Positions 1 to 6,293 of a stretch of 6,293 nt of DNA are shown in pieces (within the stretch, counting starts at the first letter, position 1; each line of letters starts with the position of its first letter). This DNA is from a virus. Its lineage: Duplodnaviria; Heunggongvirae; Uroviricota; Caudoviricetes. The notes under the pieces are model-generated. The model was not told the origin of the DNA, did no database searches, and was given only the letters and a program-made list of their open reading frames with translations. The translations under genes were made by a program, and so were the position numbers. The DNA is taken from IMG/VR virus record IMGVR_UViG_2671180921_000022, positions 1 to 6,293 of that record, one strand, 5' to 3'.

Positions 1-696
1 TCACTTCGGGTAAGGCTGAATCCTGGATAGCTTGGTGTTTAGGCGCTTTTTTGCACGCTTATTCAGGAATCTGATGTAGCGATACTGATTAAATTTGTGT
101 ACCACGGCCCGCTCCTTATTAGCCCGCAAATACTCGCCTCGTTGCCCTCCGCGCTTAATCGCGTTCATCGCTATCTCGTGATACCACTCGCCGTCCAGCT
201 CGTAGAACGTGCTTTCATGGCTACCAATAAAATCAAAATTCGACGCCTGATATACCACGCCAGCACGTCCGCAGCGTTCGTCTGCAAAAGACTGAACCCA
301 CTCAACTGACGGATACAGTAACCTGATAACTTTCAGCGCGTAGCTGATAGCCCGTGATTCAGAATTGCGGGGCATGTCGTCGTGTAGCCACATGCGGTTC
401 AGTTCCATGTAACCCCGGTTATCTGTTTCAAGCACGACACGACGCCCTGAGTTGGGATTAAGGGCATATCCCCACTGAAGAACGCCAACCAGATCACGTC
501 CGCTGAATACGCCCAGATGCAGGTAGGAGTTATTCACAAAACGGCGGGAATAATGCTTTGTCTGAATGATTGTGCGGGCCAGCCAGCAGGATATGGTTTC
601 AACGCGCAACTCCTTTGAACCATAGCCGACAATCCGGCCTTCATACTCAATAACGCAGGGTTTTGTCAGAATGCGTGATTTCTTCTCTTTTCCCAC
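1..696 (-). CDS. mom: Mom-like DNA modification protein (Mu Mom family); 231 aa if started at GTG 696..694, stop TGA at 3..1
   Basis: Long minus-strand ORF directly downstream of, and overlapping by 50 nt, a clear com homologue. The track ORF (1..738) opens with TTG; the first in-frame ATG is at 726 with no Shine-Dalgarno. GTG at 696..694 has GGAG 7 nt upstream and gives 231 aa, which is the length I recall for Mu Mom. Protein identity beyond synteny and size is from memory. Confidence 0.75.
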
Positions 697-832
697 AATA
701 CAGCTCCGTGGGATGCTCTTTGGCATTCGATATGACAATGTAACGTTTACAGCGAGGGCATTTAATTTCTATATGCTTAAAACCTCCTTTAAACAGTAAC
801 TTATTGCAGTTCTTACAGCGAACAGAGTCCAT
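647..832 (-). CDS. com: Com zinc-finger translational activator of mom (61 aa)
   Basis: ATG at 832..830 preceded by AGGGAG. Product [61 protein letters not shown] has CxxC-x15-CxxC and is near-identical in pattern to remembered Mu Com (..[22 protein letters not shown]..). The track ORF start at 865 is a GTG with no RBS and is less likely. Confidence 0.85.
691..713 (-). promoter_or_regulatory. Translation-inhibition hairpin sequestering the mom start codon and Shine-Dalgarno
   Basis: Minus-strand RNA 713..691 is UCCCAC-GGAGCUGUAUU-GUGGGA: a 6-bp stem (713-708 pairs with 696-691) and an 11-nt loop. GGAG is in the loop and the GUG start forms the 5' end of the 3' arm. This matches the Com-relieved occlusion mechanism known for Mu mom. 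Confidence 0.5.
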
Positions 833-905
833 GATTCTCCCTGTGTAATAACCAGATACGACCACCCGGAGGGCTGGGGATATTTAACCACACATGATGT
901 AAAAC

Positions 906-933
906 GACGATCGATATGATGGTATCGATCGTC
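906..933. promoter_or_regulatory. Perfect 11-bp inverted repeat with 6-bp spacer carrying two Dam (GATC) sites; candidate methylation-sensitive operator for the com-mom promoter
   Basis: GACGATCGATA (906-916), spacer tgatgg, TATCGATCGTC (923-933); the arms are exact reverse complements. GATC at 909-912 and 927-930. The element lies 74-101 bp upstream of the com ATG in the only sizeable non-coding gap of the window (833-973). Confidence 0.5.
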
Positions 934-973
934 ATAATCTATACAAAACGCTTAATTATTAACCTTTTTTGAG

Positions 974-1444
974 TCAGCTTTCTGCGGCACTCTGAGAAAG
1001 AGGCTCTGCTATCAGGGACAGCAGTCTCTCTGTCTGTTTTCTGTTTTCGAGGGTAATTGCGCAATCCCGTTTCACCTCCTCTGCATATAATCTGACACTT
1101 TCCGCACTTTTTTGTATCTGCATTGCAATCTCTTCGAACTTTTTAAGAGATTCAGGGCGCAAATCTGCATCTGTCACCGACAAAAAATCGTTAAGCGAAC
1201 CGTCCTGTGAATCTTCATAAACGCGAATGATGCCGATTTCTGAAAGGCGCTGTGCGCTCTGTGTCAGGCGAACACTGTACACGCCCGGCAGAACGGGGAA
1301 GTCGTACTCCCCGCTCTGTGTAGTGACGTGGCTGAAAACACCTTTCAGAATCCCTGCACGGTTGTGCAGGGAGGTCAGCGTGATGGTTGTGCCGCCCAGC
1401 GGTTCTCCTGTGGGCGTTTTAATCACACCTTTAAGCTGCGGCAT
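974..1444 (-). CDS. Orphan side-tail-fibre N-terminal domain protein (lambda Stf N-terminal domain-like, about 156 aa), lacking shaft and receptor-binding parts
   Basis: The product aligns by eye to the remembered lambda Stf N-terminus: LKGVIKTPTGEP vs ISGVLKDGTGKP, GVYSVRL vs GQYSVIL, IRVYEDSQDGSLNDFL vs ITVYEDSQPGTLNDFL, DLRPESLKKFEE vs DARPEVLRRLE. The ATG at 1444 has GGAG 7 nt upstream and aligns with the lambda Stf start; track ATGs at 1486 and 1471 are alternatives. The ORF overlaps the tfa stop by 14 nt. Confidence 0.7.
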   Translation of the reverse strand: MPQLKGVIKTPTGEPLGGTTITLTSLHNRAGILKGVFSHVTTQSGEYDFPVLPGVYSVRLTQSAQRLSEIGIIRVYEDSQDGSLNDFLSVTDADLRPESLKKFEEIAMQIQKSAESVRLYAEEVKRDCAITLENRKQTERLLSLIAEPLSQSAAES

Positions 1445-1961
1445 CGGGATGCTCCGGCCAGCTGATGGCATTAAGGGAGGCTTCATCAGTAACGGCGCTT
1501 AAATCCAGCGCTTTTACCGCTTTGATATACGCCATCCACTGCGCAAGACGAGCTTTGTCGTCATCACTGATGACGCCCAGCTCCAGCTCGGCTTTCCAGT
1601 CGGAGGTGATGTCCTTTGCTTCAGTCAGCAGATGCTGGCGTTGTTTTTCTGCCAGTTGCGAATAATCAACAGGAACCGGCAGCACTTCGCCGTCTTTGTA
1701 ATACCAACTGGCTTCAATGCCAAAGCCTTCCGGCAGTTCATCAACTTCCACAATGGTGAAGCCTGCCGGATAAAGACGGGACACGTCTTCTGCCATTGAA
1801 TAAATCACGCCGCTTTCAGGGTGAATGCACAATTTGTATCTCTTCGTGAATTTGTCCATGGATTCATAAAAATCCTGTCCGTCTTCACTGCGGAAATACT
1901 GAATGCCTTCACCATAAGGCATATCTTCAGGGTAGTAACGCGTAACATTTCTGAGTTCCAT
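1431..1961 (-). CDS. Tail fibre assembly chaperone (Tfa; Mu U / P2 gpG family), about 176 aa
   Basis: Product has the characteristic Tfa C-terminal region (..LGVISDDDKARLAQWMAYIKAV..SWPEHP). ATG at 1961 is preceded by AAGGAG (minus-strand TTAAGGAGAAAATAATG). It lies immediately downstream of the fibre gene. The track start at 1997 overlaps the fibre ORF and has no RBS. Confidence 0.85.
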   Translation of the reverse strand: MELRNVTRYYPEDMPYGEGIQYFRSEDGQDFYESMDKFTKRYKLCIHPESGVIYSMAEDVSRLYPAGFTIVEVDELPEGFGIEASWYYKDGEVLPVPVDYSQLAEKQRQHLLTEAKDITSDWKAELELGVISDDDKARLAQWMAYIKAVKALDLSAVTDEASLNAISWPEHPDAAA

Positions 1962-1975
1962 TATTTTCTCCTTAA

Positions 1976-2785
1976 TTAACCTGATACGGTGCGCCATGAA
2001 CCATTGATATAAATCTGCGCGGATTTGTAATACACACCACCGATGTTATCCGCCGAACTTCTTCCCGTATCCTGGACATAAATGCCTGATAACTGACAGC
2101 CTGAAGGCGCGCGAAACGTCCAGGTGATTTCGTTACCGCCCGGGTTGTAAAACACCTCATTGGTGTACTGAAAATCACGCACAGCGCCGGAATCGGTGGT
2201 GCTGATGGTGATATCACTGGTGCCATCAAACAGCACATTGTTAATCCTGCGTGCATTCTGAAGGCGGGTTGCCGTTCCGGCGTTGCCGCTGATGTTGCTG
2301 ATGGTGATATCCGAAGACAGGGCCAAACCGTTGACCCTGCGGGTATTCGGTACAGCACTATTGGCTTTATTTACCGTGTCACCTAATGAAAGTGCGTTGA
2401 TAATTTCACTGGCCGTGGTTTTTCCAAGAATACCGCGCACAAAAGCACTGAGCGGCGTTAACGCCATTGTGTCTTCGCTGGTAAAATACGGGAACGTGTT
2501 ATTCTCACCGGTTAATCCGGCAATGGCACCGGCTGAACCACTGTTCATAATAAACAGCTTTTTCAGGGCTGCCATTATCTGACCGGTATCTGCTTTATCC
2601 GGCGTTATTCCGGCTTCTTCGAGAATTTTCAGCAATTCAGACTGAATGATATTAAACCAGTCCGGCCCCGGATAGGTGGGCGGAATACCGTTCCCGCCTT
2701 CGGTGAAATAAAGCGTTGTCTGGCTTGATACTGGCGCAACAGGCGGCATCACCGGCACGCCGGTATTATTATCAACATGATACAT
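1976..2785 (-). CDS. Short tail fibre protein (269 aa): tail-collar-like N-terminus, P2 gpH-like C-terminus
   Basis: ATG at 2785. N-terminal ..YPGPDWFNIIQSELL.. resembles the conserved baseplate-attachment region of Mu S / P2 H fibres. The central ..FPYFTSEDTMALTPLSAFVRGILGK.. and the terminal ..YINGSWRTVSG resemble remembered P2 gpH (..FPYFTGNDVASLATLTKVGRDILAK.., ..YINGTWYNVAQV). Stop TAA at 1978..1976, followed by the tfa RBS. Confidence 0.8.
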   Translation of the reverse strand: MYHVDNNTGVPVMPPVAPVSSQTTLYFTEGGNGIPPTYPGPDWFNIIQSELLKILEEAGITPDKADTGQIMAALKKLFIMNSGSAGAIAGLTGENNTFPYFTSEDTMALTPLSAFVRGILGKTTASEIINALSLGDTVNKANSAVPNTRRVNGLALSSDITISNISGNAGTATRLQNARRINNVLFDGTSDITISTTDSGAVRDFQYTNEVFYNPGGNEITWTFRAPSGCQLSGIYVQDTGRSSADNIGGVYYKSAQIYINGSWRTVSG

Positions 2786-2827
2786 ATCTGATTATTTCTC
2801 CTGATATTGTGTATACAGAGATATTTA

Positions 2828-3871
2828 TTATTCAGTGGCGCTCCGTGCCTGATTAAGCAACTCCGCTGAGAAGGTCAGCTCCCCCCTTGCGAAAGGCGTT
2901 TCTCCGCCCGGTTCCGCCATAAAACTCTGTGAGACTGTGGTCCAGCTGTTTGTGTCGTATTGTGCGCCATCCTCTGTAATCATTGCGCCTTCATGGCTTC
3001 CGTTTTTCACTTTCCAGGCCAGACAGTTATTGGGTGCGTCTGCGCTGCGGTAAGTAACAGAAGCCATTACAGCAATGACATTGTTGTTACTGTTGTCCAC
3101 CGCACCAAACGTAACCTGTGCAGCCTCCGTGGAGGGTGAGAGCATCAGGTATCCGGCATCACTGTCAGATGTGTTCAGCCCCGTCACAATATCTTTGTCC
3201 AGCGAGTTTCTGGCACTCCCGCCGGAGAACGCCGTTACCGGACTGTAGCCAACCTCAACACTCCCCAGCAGTGATGGTGAGGCATCATAGTTATCACCAT
3301 ACGGCAGCGTCGCCAGGTACATATCACCCAGCATCACAGTACCGGATACACCTGACGTGAAAATACGTCCGGTATCGCCAATCCCCACCGTAACCTGGTC
3401 CACGTCATTAAAGTAAACGCGTCCGACTAACGAGCGGTTACAGTACAGGCTGGCTGACGCCCGATTACTTTCACTTAGCGCCACAAAAATCTCAAAATAG
3501 TAACTGGCTGCCTCATCAGGATACGGTGTGGTGAATGATTTACCGCCGACACGGATATACGAAGATGAATTTTTCCCCCCTTCACTTAATGTCAGACGAA
3601 AACCCATCTGTACGGCAGAGCCGCTTAAATCAGGAAGCGGAATATAAAGATAAAGAGGTCCCTGCGGCTGAAAAATCAGCCCTGTTCTTTCTGTTGTATT
3701 AACAACCTGTGTGCCACGACGAACGGATACGACAGAAGAGTTGTACATGTCACTGATAAGTGTGACGCCGTTTTCGTTCAGTGCGGAAAGAATGTTTGCC
3801 GGAGAGGGGGTCTCACACAATTCCTCATCCGCCGGAATTTGTCGGAAGCTTTCGAGTTTTATGATATTCAA
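2828..3871 (-). CDS. Hypothetical protein in the tail-fibre locus (347 aa from TTG 3871; 362 aa from TTG 3916); possible accessory receptor-binding or fibre-associated protein
   Basis: Uninterrupted minus-strand ORF with no in-frame ATG near its 5' end. TTG at 3871 is preceded by AAGGAG at 7-nt spacing, whereas TTG at 3916 overlaps the gp48-like gene and has no RBS. Ends in tandem stops TAA TAA (2830..2825). Ser/Gly/Thr/Asn/Tyr-rich like phage fibre or receptor-binding domains, but I recognise no specific family. Confidence 0.6.
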   Translation of the reverse strand: MNIIKLESFRQIPADEELCETPSPANILSALNENGVTLISDMYNSSVVSVRRGTQVVNTTERTGLIFQPQGPLYLYIPLPDLSGSAVQMGFRLTLSEGGKNSSSYIRVGGKSFTTPYPDEAASYYFEIFVALSESNRASASLYCNRSLVGRVYFNDVDQVTVGIGDTGRIFTSGVSGTVMLGDMYLATLPYGDNYDASPSLLGSVEVGYSPVTAFSGGSARNSLDKDIVTGLNTSDSDAGYLMLSPSTEAAQVTFGAVDNSNNNVIAVMASVTYRSADAPNNCLAWKVKNGSHEGAMITEDGAQYDTNSWTTVSQSFMAEPGGETPFARGELTFSAELLNQARSATE

Positions 3872-3893
3872 AGTTACTCTCCTTTTATTTTTG

Positions 3894-4817
3894 CTATTCG
3901 GATATGACCACAGCAAAATGCAGTCCCGGATGATTAATCATTAACGGTTCACTGGTTCTGTTGACTGTCTGTAATTGCATACTGTTAACCGGTACGGGGG
4001 AGCCTGTTCTGTATCCCACCTGCATCTGCGCACTGGTAATTGTCATGGGTTCAGTTGTTGGTTGACCTGAATGCAATTGTGCCCTGCTGAGCATCAGCGG
4101 TTCACCTGCCAGTGCCGGAACAACCGCAAAATGCATTCCAGCACAGTTAATCGCTACTGGATCCGCAGCTTTGTATCCGGCCTGAACCCAGGTACGGTTA
4201 ATGGACAGTGGTGGACCGGAAAGAGATTCATCATCACCATCTGTGTAAAAAAACTCATACCCTGTTCCGCCCATGCGGTAATTTTTCAGGAGACATTCCA
4301 GTTCGCGGGTCCGTTCGCTGATTAATGGCGTCATGACGTCATCAATACAGGTAAACCGACCGGCATCGTTGTCCGGGACTTCCACTTTCAGCAGCCAGCG
4401 ATACCGCGCCGGATGCAGCGGATACATGCAGTCGCGCAGGCAGTGGTGCGGCAGAACGGCCGTCACCTTTATGGTGAAGCCCAGCGCCGCAGCAGCAGCT
4501 TCAATCTGCCAGGTTGCCAGCCCGCCCTTGCGGCGGTATTTCTCAACCACAGCACGGCGACGGGCTTCCGTTGTGGTGGCGGCAATTCCGCATTCCGGCA
4601 GCGCCAGATACTGCTCCCACTCCGGCAGCAACTGGAGCGTGGTTTCCGGGCGCATCTCCACATGCAGACGCGAGGCGTCGTATTCAACGCGGGTTAAACG
4701 CTCTGCAAGCGCCCTTAAAAAACGGTTTAAATCTGCATCGTTATCACGCGGCCATGCCTTACCCCGTGGCATGACCTGTTGCAGTGCGGTCAGCCATTCC
4801 GTCACGCTGTGAGCCAT
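3894..4817 (-). CDS. Mu gp48 / P2 gpI-like baseplate-tail protein (DUF2313/YmfQ-like N-terminal about 190 aa) with an extra C-terminal repeat region of about 115 aa
   Basis: ATG at 4817. N-terminus MAHSVTEWLTALQQVMPRGKAWPRD... is typical of gpI/gp48-family proteins. Position is right after the baseplate-J-like gene, with a 16-nt overlap. The C-terminal region carries about five degenerate 15-aa repeats. Confidence 0.8.
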   Translation of the reverse strand: MAHSVTEWLTALQQVMPRGKAWPRDNDADLNRFLRALAERLTRVEYDASRLHVEMRPETTLQLLPEWEQYLALPECGIAATTTEARRRAVVEKYRRKGGLATWQIEAAAAALGFTIKVTAVLPHHCLRDCMYPLHPARYRWLLKVEVPDNDAGRFTCIDDVMTPLISERTRELECLLKNYRMGGTGYEFFYTDGDDESLSGPPLSINRTWVQAGYKAADPVAINCAGMHFAVVPALAGEPLMLSRAQLHSGQPTTEPMTITSAQMQVGYRTGSPVPVNSMQLQTVNRTSEPLMINHPGLHFAVVISE

Positions 4818-5878
4818 GTCACCACCCCGATGGTGATAAGCTCATCCACATCACTGGTGGTGTCTTCCCCGATGTTGAGGAAGTAATCCGTGATACCGGA
4901 CGTCATACCGATGGCCGTGCGCAGCGAGGACACCGGCAGCATCTGACCGGGGGCCAGCGTTTTCTGTAATGCGGTCAGGTTTGCCCGGACGGCGTTCCTG
5001 TTCGCCTGGCTGTCCGGTGTCAGACGGATGGACAGGTCGACCTTCTTCAGCCTGACCTGTACCGGCCAGACCTCGATGCCGCCCGGTTTGCCCACCATCA
5101 CCCCGGTGGCCGGGTGTTTGTGGCAGAACAGATACTGCTCCATTGTCTTCAGGTCGTCCCGTGTGGGGATAATGTCTTCACGGTCATCATAAAGCCATGC
5201 CAGCCCGACCGTGCCGGGGCCGTGCCACGCATCCCACGCCCACGCGCGGCTGACACCCGGCACTTCACGCGCCCAGATGACGTAATCATGCAGTGCACCG
5301 CCCACCGGGGGATTGCGGCGCACATACAGCAGACGGTCCAGCAGCTCTGCGATGGATTCGATGTCTGCGCCACCGGTGATGCCACTTTCAGTCACCGCGC
5401 CTGTGCTGCCCGTTCCGGGTAGCGGGGATAACAGAGTGAGCACGGCACCGGCAGCAAGATTGCCCGCCACACCGGCTTCTTCAGCCTGCACGATGACAGT
5501 GACCTCGCCGTCCTGTACCTCGCCGGATGTGAGTACCTGATACACCTGATTCGTGTCGGACTGCATCCGGGTTTCTGCCGGGATGGGGGACTGACTGGTG
5601 AAGGTCACCGGTCCGCTGGCAAAGGTGGCCTGCTTGCGGATAATCCCTTCATACGTTGCTGTTTTGATAATGGTTTCATCATCAGACGCGGTGGACGGAA
5701 TAATCTGGTCTTTAATCCAGCTCTGATGGTCGTATAAATCCCGGACCTGACTGCTGAATGACACGTTCAGCGCCTGCTCAACACTGACAGGCGGCAGCTT
5801 TTGCAGGCCGAGTTCATACGCAATATCTTTTTCGCCGTCGGCAATCAGTTTGCCCAGCGTGGGGATTTCATACGGCAT
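4802..5878 (-). CDS. Baseplate J-like protein (Mu gp47 / P2 gpJ family), 358 aa
   Basis: Long ORF between gp46-like and gpI-like genes; the size matches Mu gp47. ATG at 5878 has GGGAGG about 9 nt upstream and overlaps the gp46-like stop (TGA 5870..5868). The track start at 5911 is a TTG deeper into the upstream gene. Confidence 0.8.
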   Translation of the reverse strand: MPYEIPTLGKLIADGEKDIAYELGLQKLPPVSVEQALNVSFSSQVRDLYDHQSWIKDQIIPSTASDDETIIKTATYEGIIRKQATFASGPVTFTSQSPIPAETRMQSDTNQVYQVLTSGEVQDGEVTVIVQAEEAGVAGNLAAGAVLTLLSPLPGTGSTGAVTESGITGGADIESIAELLDRLLYVRRNPPVGGALHDYVIWAREVPGVSRAWAWDAWHGPGTVGLAWLYDDREDIIPTRDDLKTMEQYLFCHKHPATGVMVGKPGGIEVWPVQVRLKKVDLSIRLTPDSQANRNAVRANLTALQKTLAPGQMLPVSSLRTAIGMTSGITDYFLNIGEDTTSDVDELITIGVVTWLTA

Positions 5879-6293
5879 TAATGGTGGCCTCCCATCGGCG
5901 GGTGATTTCAATTGTGAGCGTGGTTTTGTCCGGGCGGGTTAACACCACCTGAAAGGCAATACGGTCAGGGACGATGATGCTGGCCGTGACGGTGGCGTTA
6001 CGGGCGTAACCGGCCCGCAGCAGCGGTTGCATGGACAGCCGCGCGTAATCTTCCACACGCAGGCGGACATCTTCCGTCAGCTTTTCACGCTCAAGCAGCC
6101 ACAGGCGGGAACCCCACGAAAAATCACTGTACGTGTCGCCCGGCCAGCCGCGCGGGTCGCCGGAACCATCAGGGATGACATCATCGTCATCAGCACGGGC
6201 ATCGGTGAAAAGGCAGATAAGAACCTGAGTGACCAGCCCCTCATCCAGCGAGAGGCCGTTATGGGTGACGGTGATGTCACCCCGTGAGAGCAT
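5868..6293 (-). CDS. Mu gp46-like baseplate protein (GP46 family), 141 aa; the start codon is the last triplet of the window, so the true 5' end cannot be confirmed
   Basis: Product contains ..DDDDVIPDGSGDPRGWPGDTYSD..GSRLWLLEREK.., matching the motif pattern I recall for the phage GP46 family (acidic stretch, GWWGD, GSRLWLL.REK). ATG at 6293..6291 gives a length typical for the family, but no upstream context is visible. Confidence 0.7.
   Translation of the reverse strand: MLSRGDITVTHNGLSLDEGLVTQVLICLFTDARADDDDVIPDGSGDPRGWPGDTYSDFSWGSRLWLLEREKLTEDVRLRVEDYARLSMQPLLRAGYARNATVTASIIVPDRIAFQVVLTRPDKTTLTIEITRRWEATINAV

Follow-up and report, generated by a model that had tools for sequence, protein, structure and literature searches.

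A tandem tail-protein repeat and its lectin-like companion in Escherichia coli prophages: a possible two-part accessory adhesin

An additional gene in a Mu-like tail operon

We analysed a 6,293-nt stretch of DNA from a tailed virus (IMG/VR record IMGVR_UViG_2671180921_000022, positions 1 to 6,293), hereafter the window. It covers the right end of a Mu-like prophage, and every gene in it is encoded on the minus strand. The subject of this work is an open reading frame (ORF) of 347 codons (2828..3871, minus strand) located between a gp48/YmfQ-like baseplate gene and the canonical tail fibre gene, together with a tandem repeat of 17 residues at the C-terminus of the gp48-like protein. We give an even chance to a portable tail adhesin in two parts, an accessory of which the repeat is one part and the ORF product, translated separately, the distal subunit.

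The longest version of the frame (3916..2828) encodes 362 residues from an upstream TTG and overlaps the end of the gp48-like gene. These 15 additional codons (3872..3916, minus strand) are probably not used, because members of the ORF family align from MNII onward, and the TTG at 3871-3869 is the likelier start. It is preceded, with a 7-nt spacer, by the Shine-Dalgarno sequence AAGGAG (3879..3884, minus strand, read from 3884 to 3879) and lies 22 nt past the TAG stop of the gp48-like gene. Most members of the family likewise begin with TTG. The ORF ends in tandem TAA TAA stops (2830-2825), with 42 nt between the first stop and the ATG of the fibre gene at 2785. An earlier note on the window had given the same coordinates, start, ribosome-binding site (RBS), stops and gap, all of which hold on re-reading the sequence, and had described the product as rich in Ser, Gly, Thr and Asn, residues that make up 12, 9, 8 and 6% of it, respectively.

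The same note had found no family that the product matched, a claim that did not survive the search of profile hidden Markov models (HMMs). Residues 1-343 aligned with positions 1-348 out of 349 of the PHROG 8291 profile (E 1.7e-162, 541 bits), a catalogued family with no assigned function. No Pfam match was obtained at E <= 0.01, including among lectin, carbohydrate-binding module (CBM), lyase and glycoside hydrolase (GH) families, and a phmmer search against PDB sequences retrieved nothing significant. Homologues grouped into 28 clusters with 43-100% identity to the ORF product, nearly all from E. coli and all named 'hypothetical', and a 100%-identical copy is recorded from E. coli. An exhaustive profile search of 1.84 billion representative proteins returned 17 family members in all, and the ORF was present in 63 out of 5,426 complete E. 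coli genomes, so that it is far from universal, in line with the earlier note. The ratio of nonsynonymous to synonymous substitution rates (dN/dS) was 0.17-0.23 in eight of nine homologue comparisons, the ninth (locus L004) being too diverged for dS to be estimated. The ORF is, thus, a real gene under purifying selection and no chance reading frame.

Two irregularities in the family concern gene ends. An apparent N-terminal truncation in L006 vanishes when a GTG six codons upstream is taken as the start, and no conclusion was drawn from it. Four contigs (L031-L034) end inside the family gene near residue 190, which may reflect an assembly break or the calling of the prophage boundary.

The repeat and its linkage to the ORF family

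The protein encoded upstream of the ORF (3894-4817, minus strand) has 307 residues, of which residues 11-191 match the gp48/YmfQ baseplate-wedge domain (PF10076, E 7.6e-31; 4215..4817, minus strand), and its gene follows those of gp46 (5868-6293, minus strand) and gp47/Baseplate_J (4802-5911, minus strand). The identification as a gpI/gp48-like gene made in the earlier note is therefore upheld, whereas its treatment as an ordinary one is not. The Pfam domain ends near residue 191, and residues 202-307 form a 106-residue extension (3897..4214, minus strand) of six tandem units of ~17 residues, which we propose to be a docking or shaft module. The extension is the key to interpreting the ORF because it is the constant companion of the ORF family.

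Across loci, the repeat units follow the consensus E-P-L-(T/V)-I-N-R-A-Q-L-Q-S-G-x-x-T-x, with a period of 17 in 70 of 87 spacings. The last unit is distinct and hydrophobic (P-L-h-h-N-x-x-G-L-x-F-A-V). The extension in the window contains this terminal type (N-x-x-G-h-H-F-A-V-V) twice, internally at residues 219-235 and C-terminally at residues 290-307; the two terminal-type units of gp48-type extensions may be two docking sites or a duplicated module. The dN/dS of the extension was 0.28. Its AlphaFold2 monomer model had a predicted local distance difference test (pLDDT) score of 30-35, consistent with a segment that would need partners.

Linkage was assessed in 48 loci, each collected for holding a member of the ORF family. 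Two to seven repeat units almost always close the ORF that stops 1-32 nt ahead of the family member. A strict tandem-repeat pattern searched in the six-frame translation of 517 kb produced 90 matches, all of them at most 2 kb from a family member and none elsewhere. Among the complete E. coli genomes, the ORF was detected in 63 and the repeat DNA in 59 (each in 57 at a coverage of at least 80%), and the two were adjacent wherever coordinates were compared. In two loci (L015 and L016), the order is gp48 with repeats, fibre, Tfa and family member, that is, co-occurrence without adjacency, and in two others (L002 and L003) a 64-aa ORF with two degenerate units precedes the family member. A search for homologous proteins with an 86-residue repeat query gave no match at E <= 0.001, a weak negative given a short, repetitive query and a huge database, and two scans of viral contigs seeded with repeat peptides added no contigs to the locus set.

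Fusion of the anchor protein and the ORF product by readthrough or frameshifting was considered and ruled out, since the relative frame of the two genes varies between loci and each ORF has its own RBS; what is conserved is the length of the spacing, at 17-32 nt.

The adenovirus fibre shaft and reovirus sigma1 are built of triple beta-spiral repeats with a period of ~15 residues. The 17-residue repeat (and the repeat alone) resembles them in its short tandem units with an x-P-L-x-h-x start, alternating hydrophobic residues and a Gly/Pro turn, and the side-tail-fibre (Stf)-type repeats also follow a trimeric N-terminal anchor and have a head-like protein associated with the end of the repeat. 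However, the period is 17 rather than ~15, the head is a separate polypeptide, and the repeat also occurs on gp48, which is not known to be trimeric. Searches of PDB sequences with the repeat found no match at E <= 10 and, as neither these nor the AlphaFold2 monomer model supported an adenovirus-like beta-spiral, we keep it as an analogy.

Annotation of this repeat is uninformative in the records examined. In L050 (NZ_CP068155.1, 6999-7958), the extended gp48 is flagged by the NCBI annotation pipeline (PGAP) as a truncated pseudogene, 'YmfQ family protein, incomplete; missing C-terminus', and no feature covers the repeat DNA, despite a continuous reading frame of 319 aa. Further records from the same search list no feature under the repeat DNA; L050 is the one that was checked.

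A predicted lectin-type fold and remote homologues at the tail end

The AlphaFold2 model of the ORF product (mean pLDDT 90.2, predicted template modelling score 0.87) is globular and contains two beta-sandwich domains, at about residues 1-200 and 210-347, without an elongated shaft. The first domain is a ConA-like lectin/glucanase jelly-roll that superposes on known members of this superfamily, which includes legume lectins, CBM4/22, PL7/PL14 lyases, GH16 and the lectin domains of sialidases. The ORF product shares the fold, but has no Pfam membership and no identifiable ligand-binding or catalytic residues.

The product does not belong to the other families expected at this position. It matched neither PF02413 (Caudo_TAP) nor any PHROG of tail fibre assembly, in contrast to the Tfa of the window (1431..1997, minus strand), the tail fibre assembly protein and partner of the fibre, which matched PF02413 (1.1e-20) and phrog_136 (9e-56). 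Nor is it a tail fibre proper, having no Pfam match and PHROG 8291 as its sole PHROG match. The canonical fibre of 269 aa is encoded downstream in the same operon (1976..2785, minus strand; PHROG 1833 tail fiber). The ORF is, thus, an extra gene and not the proximal half of a known two-gene fibre, an outcome that would have undone the earlier note's description.

Lectins and CBMs share the match lists with enzymes, which raises the possibility that the product is a virion-borne polysaccharide lyase or glycoside hydrolase with a beta-jelly-roll that degrades capsule or O-antigen. We judge this quite unlikely. Lyases and GH16 enzymes do have the fold of the ORF product, but it is equally common among the non-catalytic lectins and CBMs in the same lists, and no lyase or hydrolase family of Pfam was matched at E <= 0.01. 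Inspection by eye of the family alignment, which was not checked systematically, revealed neither a PL7 (Q-x-H) nor a GH16 (E-x-D-x-x-E) motif.

The structure search of the predicted model, a check that the earlier note had put forward, also pointed to viral tail ends. Against predicted viral structures, Foldseek retrieved matches spanning both domains, with template modelling (TM) scores of 0.64-0.69 and E values of about 1e-13, to proteins of 316-371 aa from Achromobacter phage AchV4, Serratia phage JS26, Providencia phage Kokobel1, Proteus phage Saba and Cronobacter phage JC01. By length and name, the top match corresponds to AchV4_0026. AchV4 gp25, gp26 and gp27 all belong to PHROG 2448, a family with members in 166 phage records, most of them from Chi-like Casjensviridae; three paralogs are usual, and they close the distal end of the tail module behind a short 'tail fiber' gene. 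In AchV4 (L048, 16050-19264) and in phage chi (L049, 5980-10237), a lytic Chi-like phage (PMC4342425), three or four tandem PHROG 2448 paralogs lie at the end of the tail module. Two of them, AchV4 gp25 and gp26, were detected in virions by liquid chromatography-tandem mass spectrometry (LC-MS/MS) (PMC7996906).

An hhalign comparison between a profile of seven PHROG 2448-type proteins and the ORF-family profile gave a probability of 94% (E 1.4e-7) over 202 columns. Single-sequence comparisons with AchV4 gp25, gp26 and gp27 were weak (E 0.006-0.25), and hmmscan of the ORF product against phrog_2448 gave no direct match at E <= 0.01. By the profile alignment and the predicted structures, the ORF product is a remote homologue of these tail-distal proteins. 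Besides the two-beta-sandwich architecture, PHROG 2448 proteins (320-409 aa; AchV4 gp25/gp26/gp27 and Salmonella phage chi gp72-75) share with it the N-terminal motif M-x-x-h-x-h-(D/E)-G-F-(D/R)-Q and a coding position right behind a short 'tail fiber' gene, where the tail module ends distally. They differ in that identity is ~14%, with the N-terminal 116 residues outside the hhalign alignment, and in copy number: siphoviruses such as chi have three or four paralogs in tandem, whereas the ORF family is a single gene in prophages. Moreover, AchV4 gp24, the sole upstream protein inspected, lacks the 17-residue PLxINR repeat. The literature on chi, YSD1 and PIN phages gives no role for the homologous tail-end proteins. 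Annotations of PHROG 2448 members are almost all 'hypothetical', with a few that are plainly wrong, such as 'histone-lysine N-methyltransferase' in Salmonella phage 35 and Proteus phage DoubleBarrel.

While PHROG 8291 was already catalogued, the obligate association of its members with a transplantable repeat adaptor on several anchors, a baseplate wedge protein among them, and the remote link to the tail-end proteins of Chi-like phages are new.

The repeat is grafted onto different tail proteins

Several types of tail protein carry the repeat. Mu gp48 (PF10076) is the anchor in the window and in L001, L009, L021 and L043, the lambdoid side-tail-fibre N-terminal domain PfN (PF08400) in L004, L006, L019, L027 and L045-L047, and the P2-type fibre N-terminus (PF12571) in L008. 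The anchor of L044 (4740-5978) has two repeat units after a collagen-like G-x-y run; as the portal of this phage is of P22 type and its adaptor of SU10 type, the cassette extends to a podovirus-like tail module. PfN anchors have been shown experimentally to be trimeric (PMC3368898).

On gp48, the repeat extension is a graft. About 115 of 120 clusters of gp48/YmfQ homologues have 173-201 aa, and four carry the extension. An unextended protein of 194 aa is 95% identical to the gp48 domain of the window, and gp48 domains with just 41-45% identity to each other carry extensions conserved at more than 80%. GC content drops from 57-65% in the core from gp46 to gp48 to 45-53% in the repeat extension, ORF, fibre and Tfa, and the step, at about 4200-4400 in the window, falls where the gp48 domain passes into the repeat. 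The direct order from gp48 to fibre that the earlier note regarded as the norm in Mu-like phages is borne out by these cluster lengths and by the related Mu-like prophage L045, where a normal 194-aa gp48 is directly followed by the fibre gene, with no ORF between them.

In L045, the family member comes later: past the fibre and Tfa genes there is a 202-aa PfN stub carrying three repeats, and the family member fits between this stub and com/mom. The same position in the window is occupied by a truncated Stf/PfN ('prophage tail fibre N-terminal') ORF of 170 aa (974..1486, minus strand). Because L045 has an intact PfN cassette at exactly this position, the window probably holds one live cassette on gp48 and one decayed, Stf/PfN-anchored cassette. 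The truncated ORF ends in '...LIAEPLSQSAAES', which resembles a first repeat unit cut short.

This range of anchors bears on the suggestion of a moron-type cargo gene, one of three in the earlier note. We take it to mean a gene that serves the lysogen in a non-structural way, for example in exclusion or virulence, and happens to lie beside fibre genes. The TTG start is weak, the family member is the last gene before the end of lambdoid prophages, a frequent site of cargo, and copies are known from prophages and viral contigs, with none in sequenced phage records. However, cargo would not be expected to track a C-terminal repeat over four structural anchors. Consensus scans found no promoter-like or terminator-like site on the minus strand near 2800-3950, and the ORF is packed into the late operon, with its start only those 22 nt past the previous stop. 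In GC content it resembles the fibre and Tfa genes next to it, an N-terminus of signal-peptide or transmembrane type was not apparent by eye, and its remote homologues belong to the tail module of Chi-like phages. Because of the lack of flanking sites on the coding strand, the late-operon packing and the linkage to structural anchors, we regard this explanation as very improbable.

In L047, a lambdoid prophage, a cluster of three genes with CDtoxinA, Exo_endo_phos and CDtoxinA domains (9592-11692) lies ~2.5 kb downstream of the family member, at the prophage end. It resembles a cytolethal distending toxin operon.

Divergence between near-identical prophages peaks in the ORF

We compared the window with its nearest E. 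coli relative, L001, by nucleotide identity. The mom, com, PfN remnant and Tfa regions are 97-99.8% identical, and gp46, gp47 and the gp48 domain 94-97%. Identity falls to 85.6% in the repeat extension, 82.7% in the fibre gene, the second most diverged, and 74.3% in the ORF, the most diverged. The ORF is therefore the centre of a trough in identity, as expected for an exchangeable gene of host interaction.

This trough helps to weigh two further explanations. The ORF product could be an assembly chaperone for the repeat-bearing protein, comparable to Tfa or gp57A, which would fold or oligomerise the repeats and be absent from the virion. It is nearly always encoded directly behind the repeat-bearing gene, as is classic for a fibre chaperone, the co-occurrence with the repeat is strict, the repeat alone is not predicted to fold, and the flat variability of the family (see below) would suit a protein whose partner is a conserved repeat. 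Against this, the ORF is more diverged than the repeat (74% versus 86%), the opposite of what one would expect from a dedicated folding partner, and the product is unlike Caudo_TAP or other chaperone families. To our knowledge, a 350-residue, two-domain lectin-like fold is unlike that of known fibre chaperones, and AchV4 gp25 and gp26, to which the product is remotely homologous, are part of the virion. Position does not discriminate either, as the gp38 of T2-type phages is placed like a chaperone and is nevertheless an adhesin. Overall, we consider a chaperone role unlikely.

The products of T2/T6-type gene 38 and of Tfa, U and G in lambda, Mu and P2 act on, or stay bound to, the C-terminal end of the fibre. 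The ORF resembles them in lying directly downstream of a fibre-like gene, but there is no relationship in sequence or fold: the ORF product has two beta-sandwich domains and no Caudo_TAP match, and its partner is the 17-residue repeat, able to sit on a baseplate wedge protein, rather than a fibre tip domain.

Under the other explanation, the product binds no receptor and decorates or stabilises the tail tip or baseplate as a structural part, for example by capping or bracing the repeat. The linkage and the evidence from virion homologues would apply to it as they do to an adhesin, and flat variability together with purifying selection fits an architectural protein. Yet the ORF is the peak of divergence between near-identical prophages, beyond even the fibre gene, a lectin/CBM-type fold would be unusual for a mere brace, and transplantation onto very different tails is more easily explained by a selectable function such as adsorption. 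We hold this role to be improbable.

Of the three roles proposed in the earlier note, a second receptor- or glycan-binding protein fits best, given the lectin/CBM fold, the remote homology to virion proteins and the divergence trough; the moron reading fares poorly, with no flanking sites and a structural partner. The ORF most likely encodes a second, plug-in device for host recognition rather than stray cargo.

The remaining genes of the window

The window ends with com (647-865) and mom (1-738), both on the minus strand. Likeness to Mu, SfMu and D108 at the DNA level is limited to these two genes (~88-89%), while the whole window is ~90% identical to prophages of 23 complete E. coli genomes. 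Between the Tfa gene and com/mom (865-1431), the window has no invertible G segment and no gin invertase, both of which are present in phage Mu. Terminator-like hairpins number 13 in the window, compared with 5.5 +/- 2.3 in shuffled sequences; almost all of them lie on the plus strand, which is non-coding, so that a function in termination is improbable.

A putative adhesin docked on a repeat

The proposed device would consist of two parts. The first is the module of tandem 17-residue repeats, carried at the C-terminus of the anchor, whichever tail protein that is in a given phage, and the second is the ~350-residue protein with its two predicted beta-sandwich, lectin/CBM-like domains. The ORF product would dock non-covalently on the repeat module, probably at the hydrophobic terminal-type unit, and would be displayed on the virion as an extra adhesin alongside the canonical fibre. 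Its ligand would most likely be a surface glycan, for instance the O-antigen of lipopolysaccharide (LPS) or the capsule. With the socket on gp48, as in the window, the device would project directly from the baseplate beside the canonical fibre.

Known systems offer partial parallels. Lactococcal siphophages have accessory carbohydrate-binding baseplate proteins and CBM insertions (BppA of Tuc2009, 'evolved' Dit and Tal), that is, an extra lectin/CBM-type module beside the main receptor-binding protein. The parallel is one of concept: hosts, tail types and modes of attachment are unrelated, no homology was detected, and here a repeat adaptor makes the module portable across myovirus-, siphovirus- and podovirus-type tails. 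Adaptors of the gp7/TssG/gpI class hold receptor-binding trimers, as in T4 gp7-gp10 and in TssG-TssK of the type VI secretion system (T6SS), so that single-copy wedge proteins of the gp48/gpI class are attachment points for peripheral binding proteins. In those systems, attachment is through the wedge protein's own loops or domains, whereas here it would be through a transplanted repeat that is also found on true fibres.

Several observations weigh against an adhesin of this kind. No hypervariable loop or tip, and no pattern of constant N-terminus and variable C-terminus, was found in the ORF family, whose variability is flat. The fold matches are generic, with 5-18% identity (about 10%) and coverage of about half of the protein. 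The homology to Casjensviridae proteins is remote, and those proteins themselves have no assigned function. All known members of the family are in prophages or viral contigs, and a tblastn search of 50,697 sequenced phage records with the ORF and the repeat region retrieved nothing. Decayed copies exist, namely what is probably a truncated second cassette in the window and L030 (7001-8051, a viral contig), where a frameshift splits the family member at the inter-domain linker into 210 and 149 aa. Finally, gp48-type proteins are present in one copy per wedge in contractile baseplates and, with the other anchors being trimers, a trimeric shaft on a single-copy gp48 is hard to picture.

A broader proposal, of which we are more doubtful, is that the repeat and the ORF product constitute a general, previously undescribed 'plug-and-socket' for the non-covalent attachment of receptor-binding proteins, with a lectin-like protein as the plug and a socket that could be grafted by recombination onto any tail protein, be it a trimeric fibre or a wedge protein present in one copy. 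Under this proposal, the two terminal-type units on gp48 might give each wedge room for several copies of the ORF product. If true, it would be a modular adaptor operating across myovirus-, siphovirus- and podovirus-type tails, and the large PHROG 2448 family of Chi-like phages would gain a first functional handle.

Implications for prophage host recognition

The host range of temperate enterobacterial phages is usually read from their annotated fibre and Tfa genes. As the ORF is named 'hypothetical' and the repeat has no informative annotation in the records examined, searches for host-range determinants or receptor-binding proteins that depend on annotation would overlook the cassette. If the ORF product is an adhesin, prophages endowed with a second and exchangeable means of recognition are present in ~1% of complete E. 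coli genomes, and the repeat would be a natural adaptor, working on three tail morphotypes, that would lend itself to the addition of specificities to engineered phages or tailocins. The window would also be an example of a baseplate wedge protein, gp48, gaining a fibre-like extension, and the link to Chi-like phages would give a testable hypothesis for the three or four paralogous, 'hypothetical' tail-end proteins that these phages conserve.

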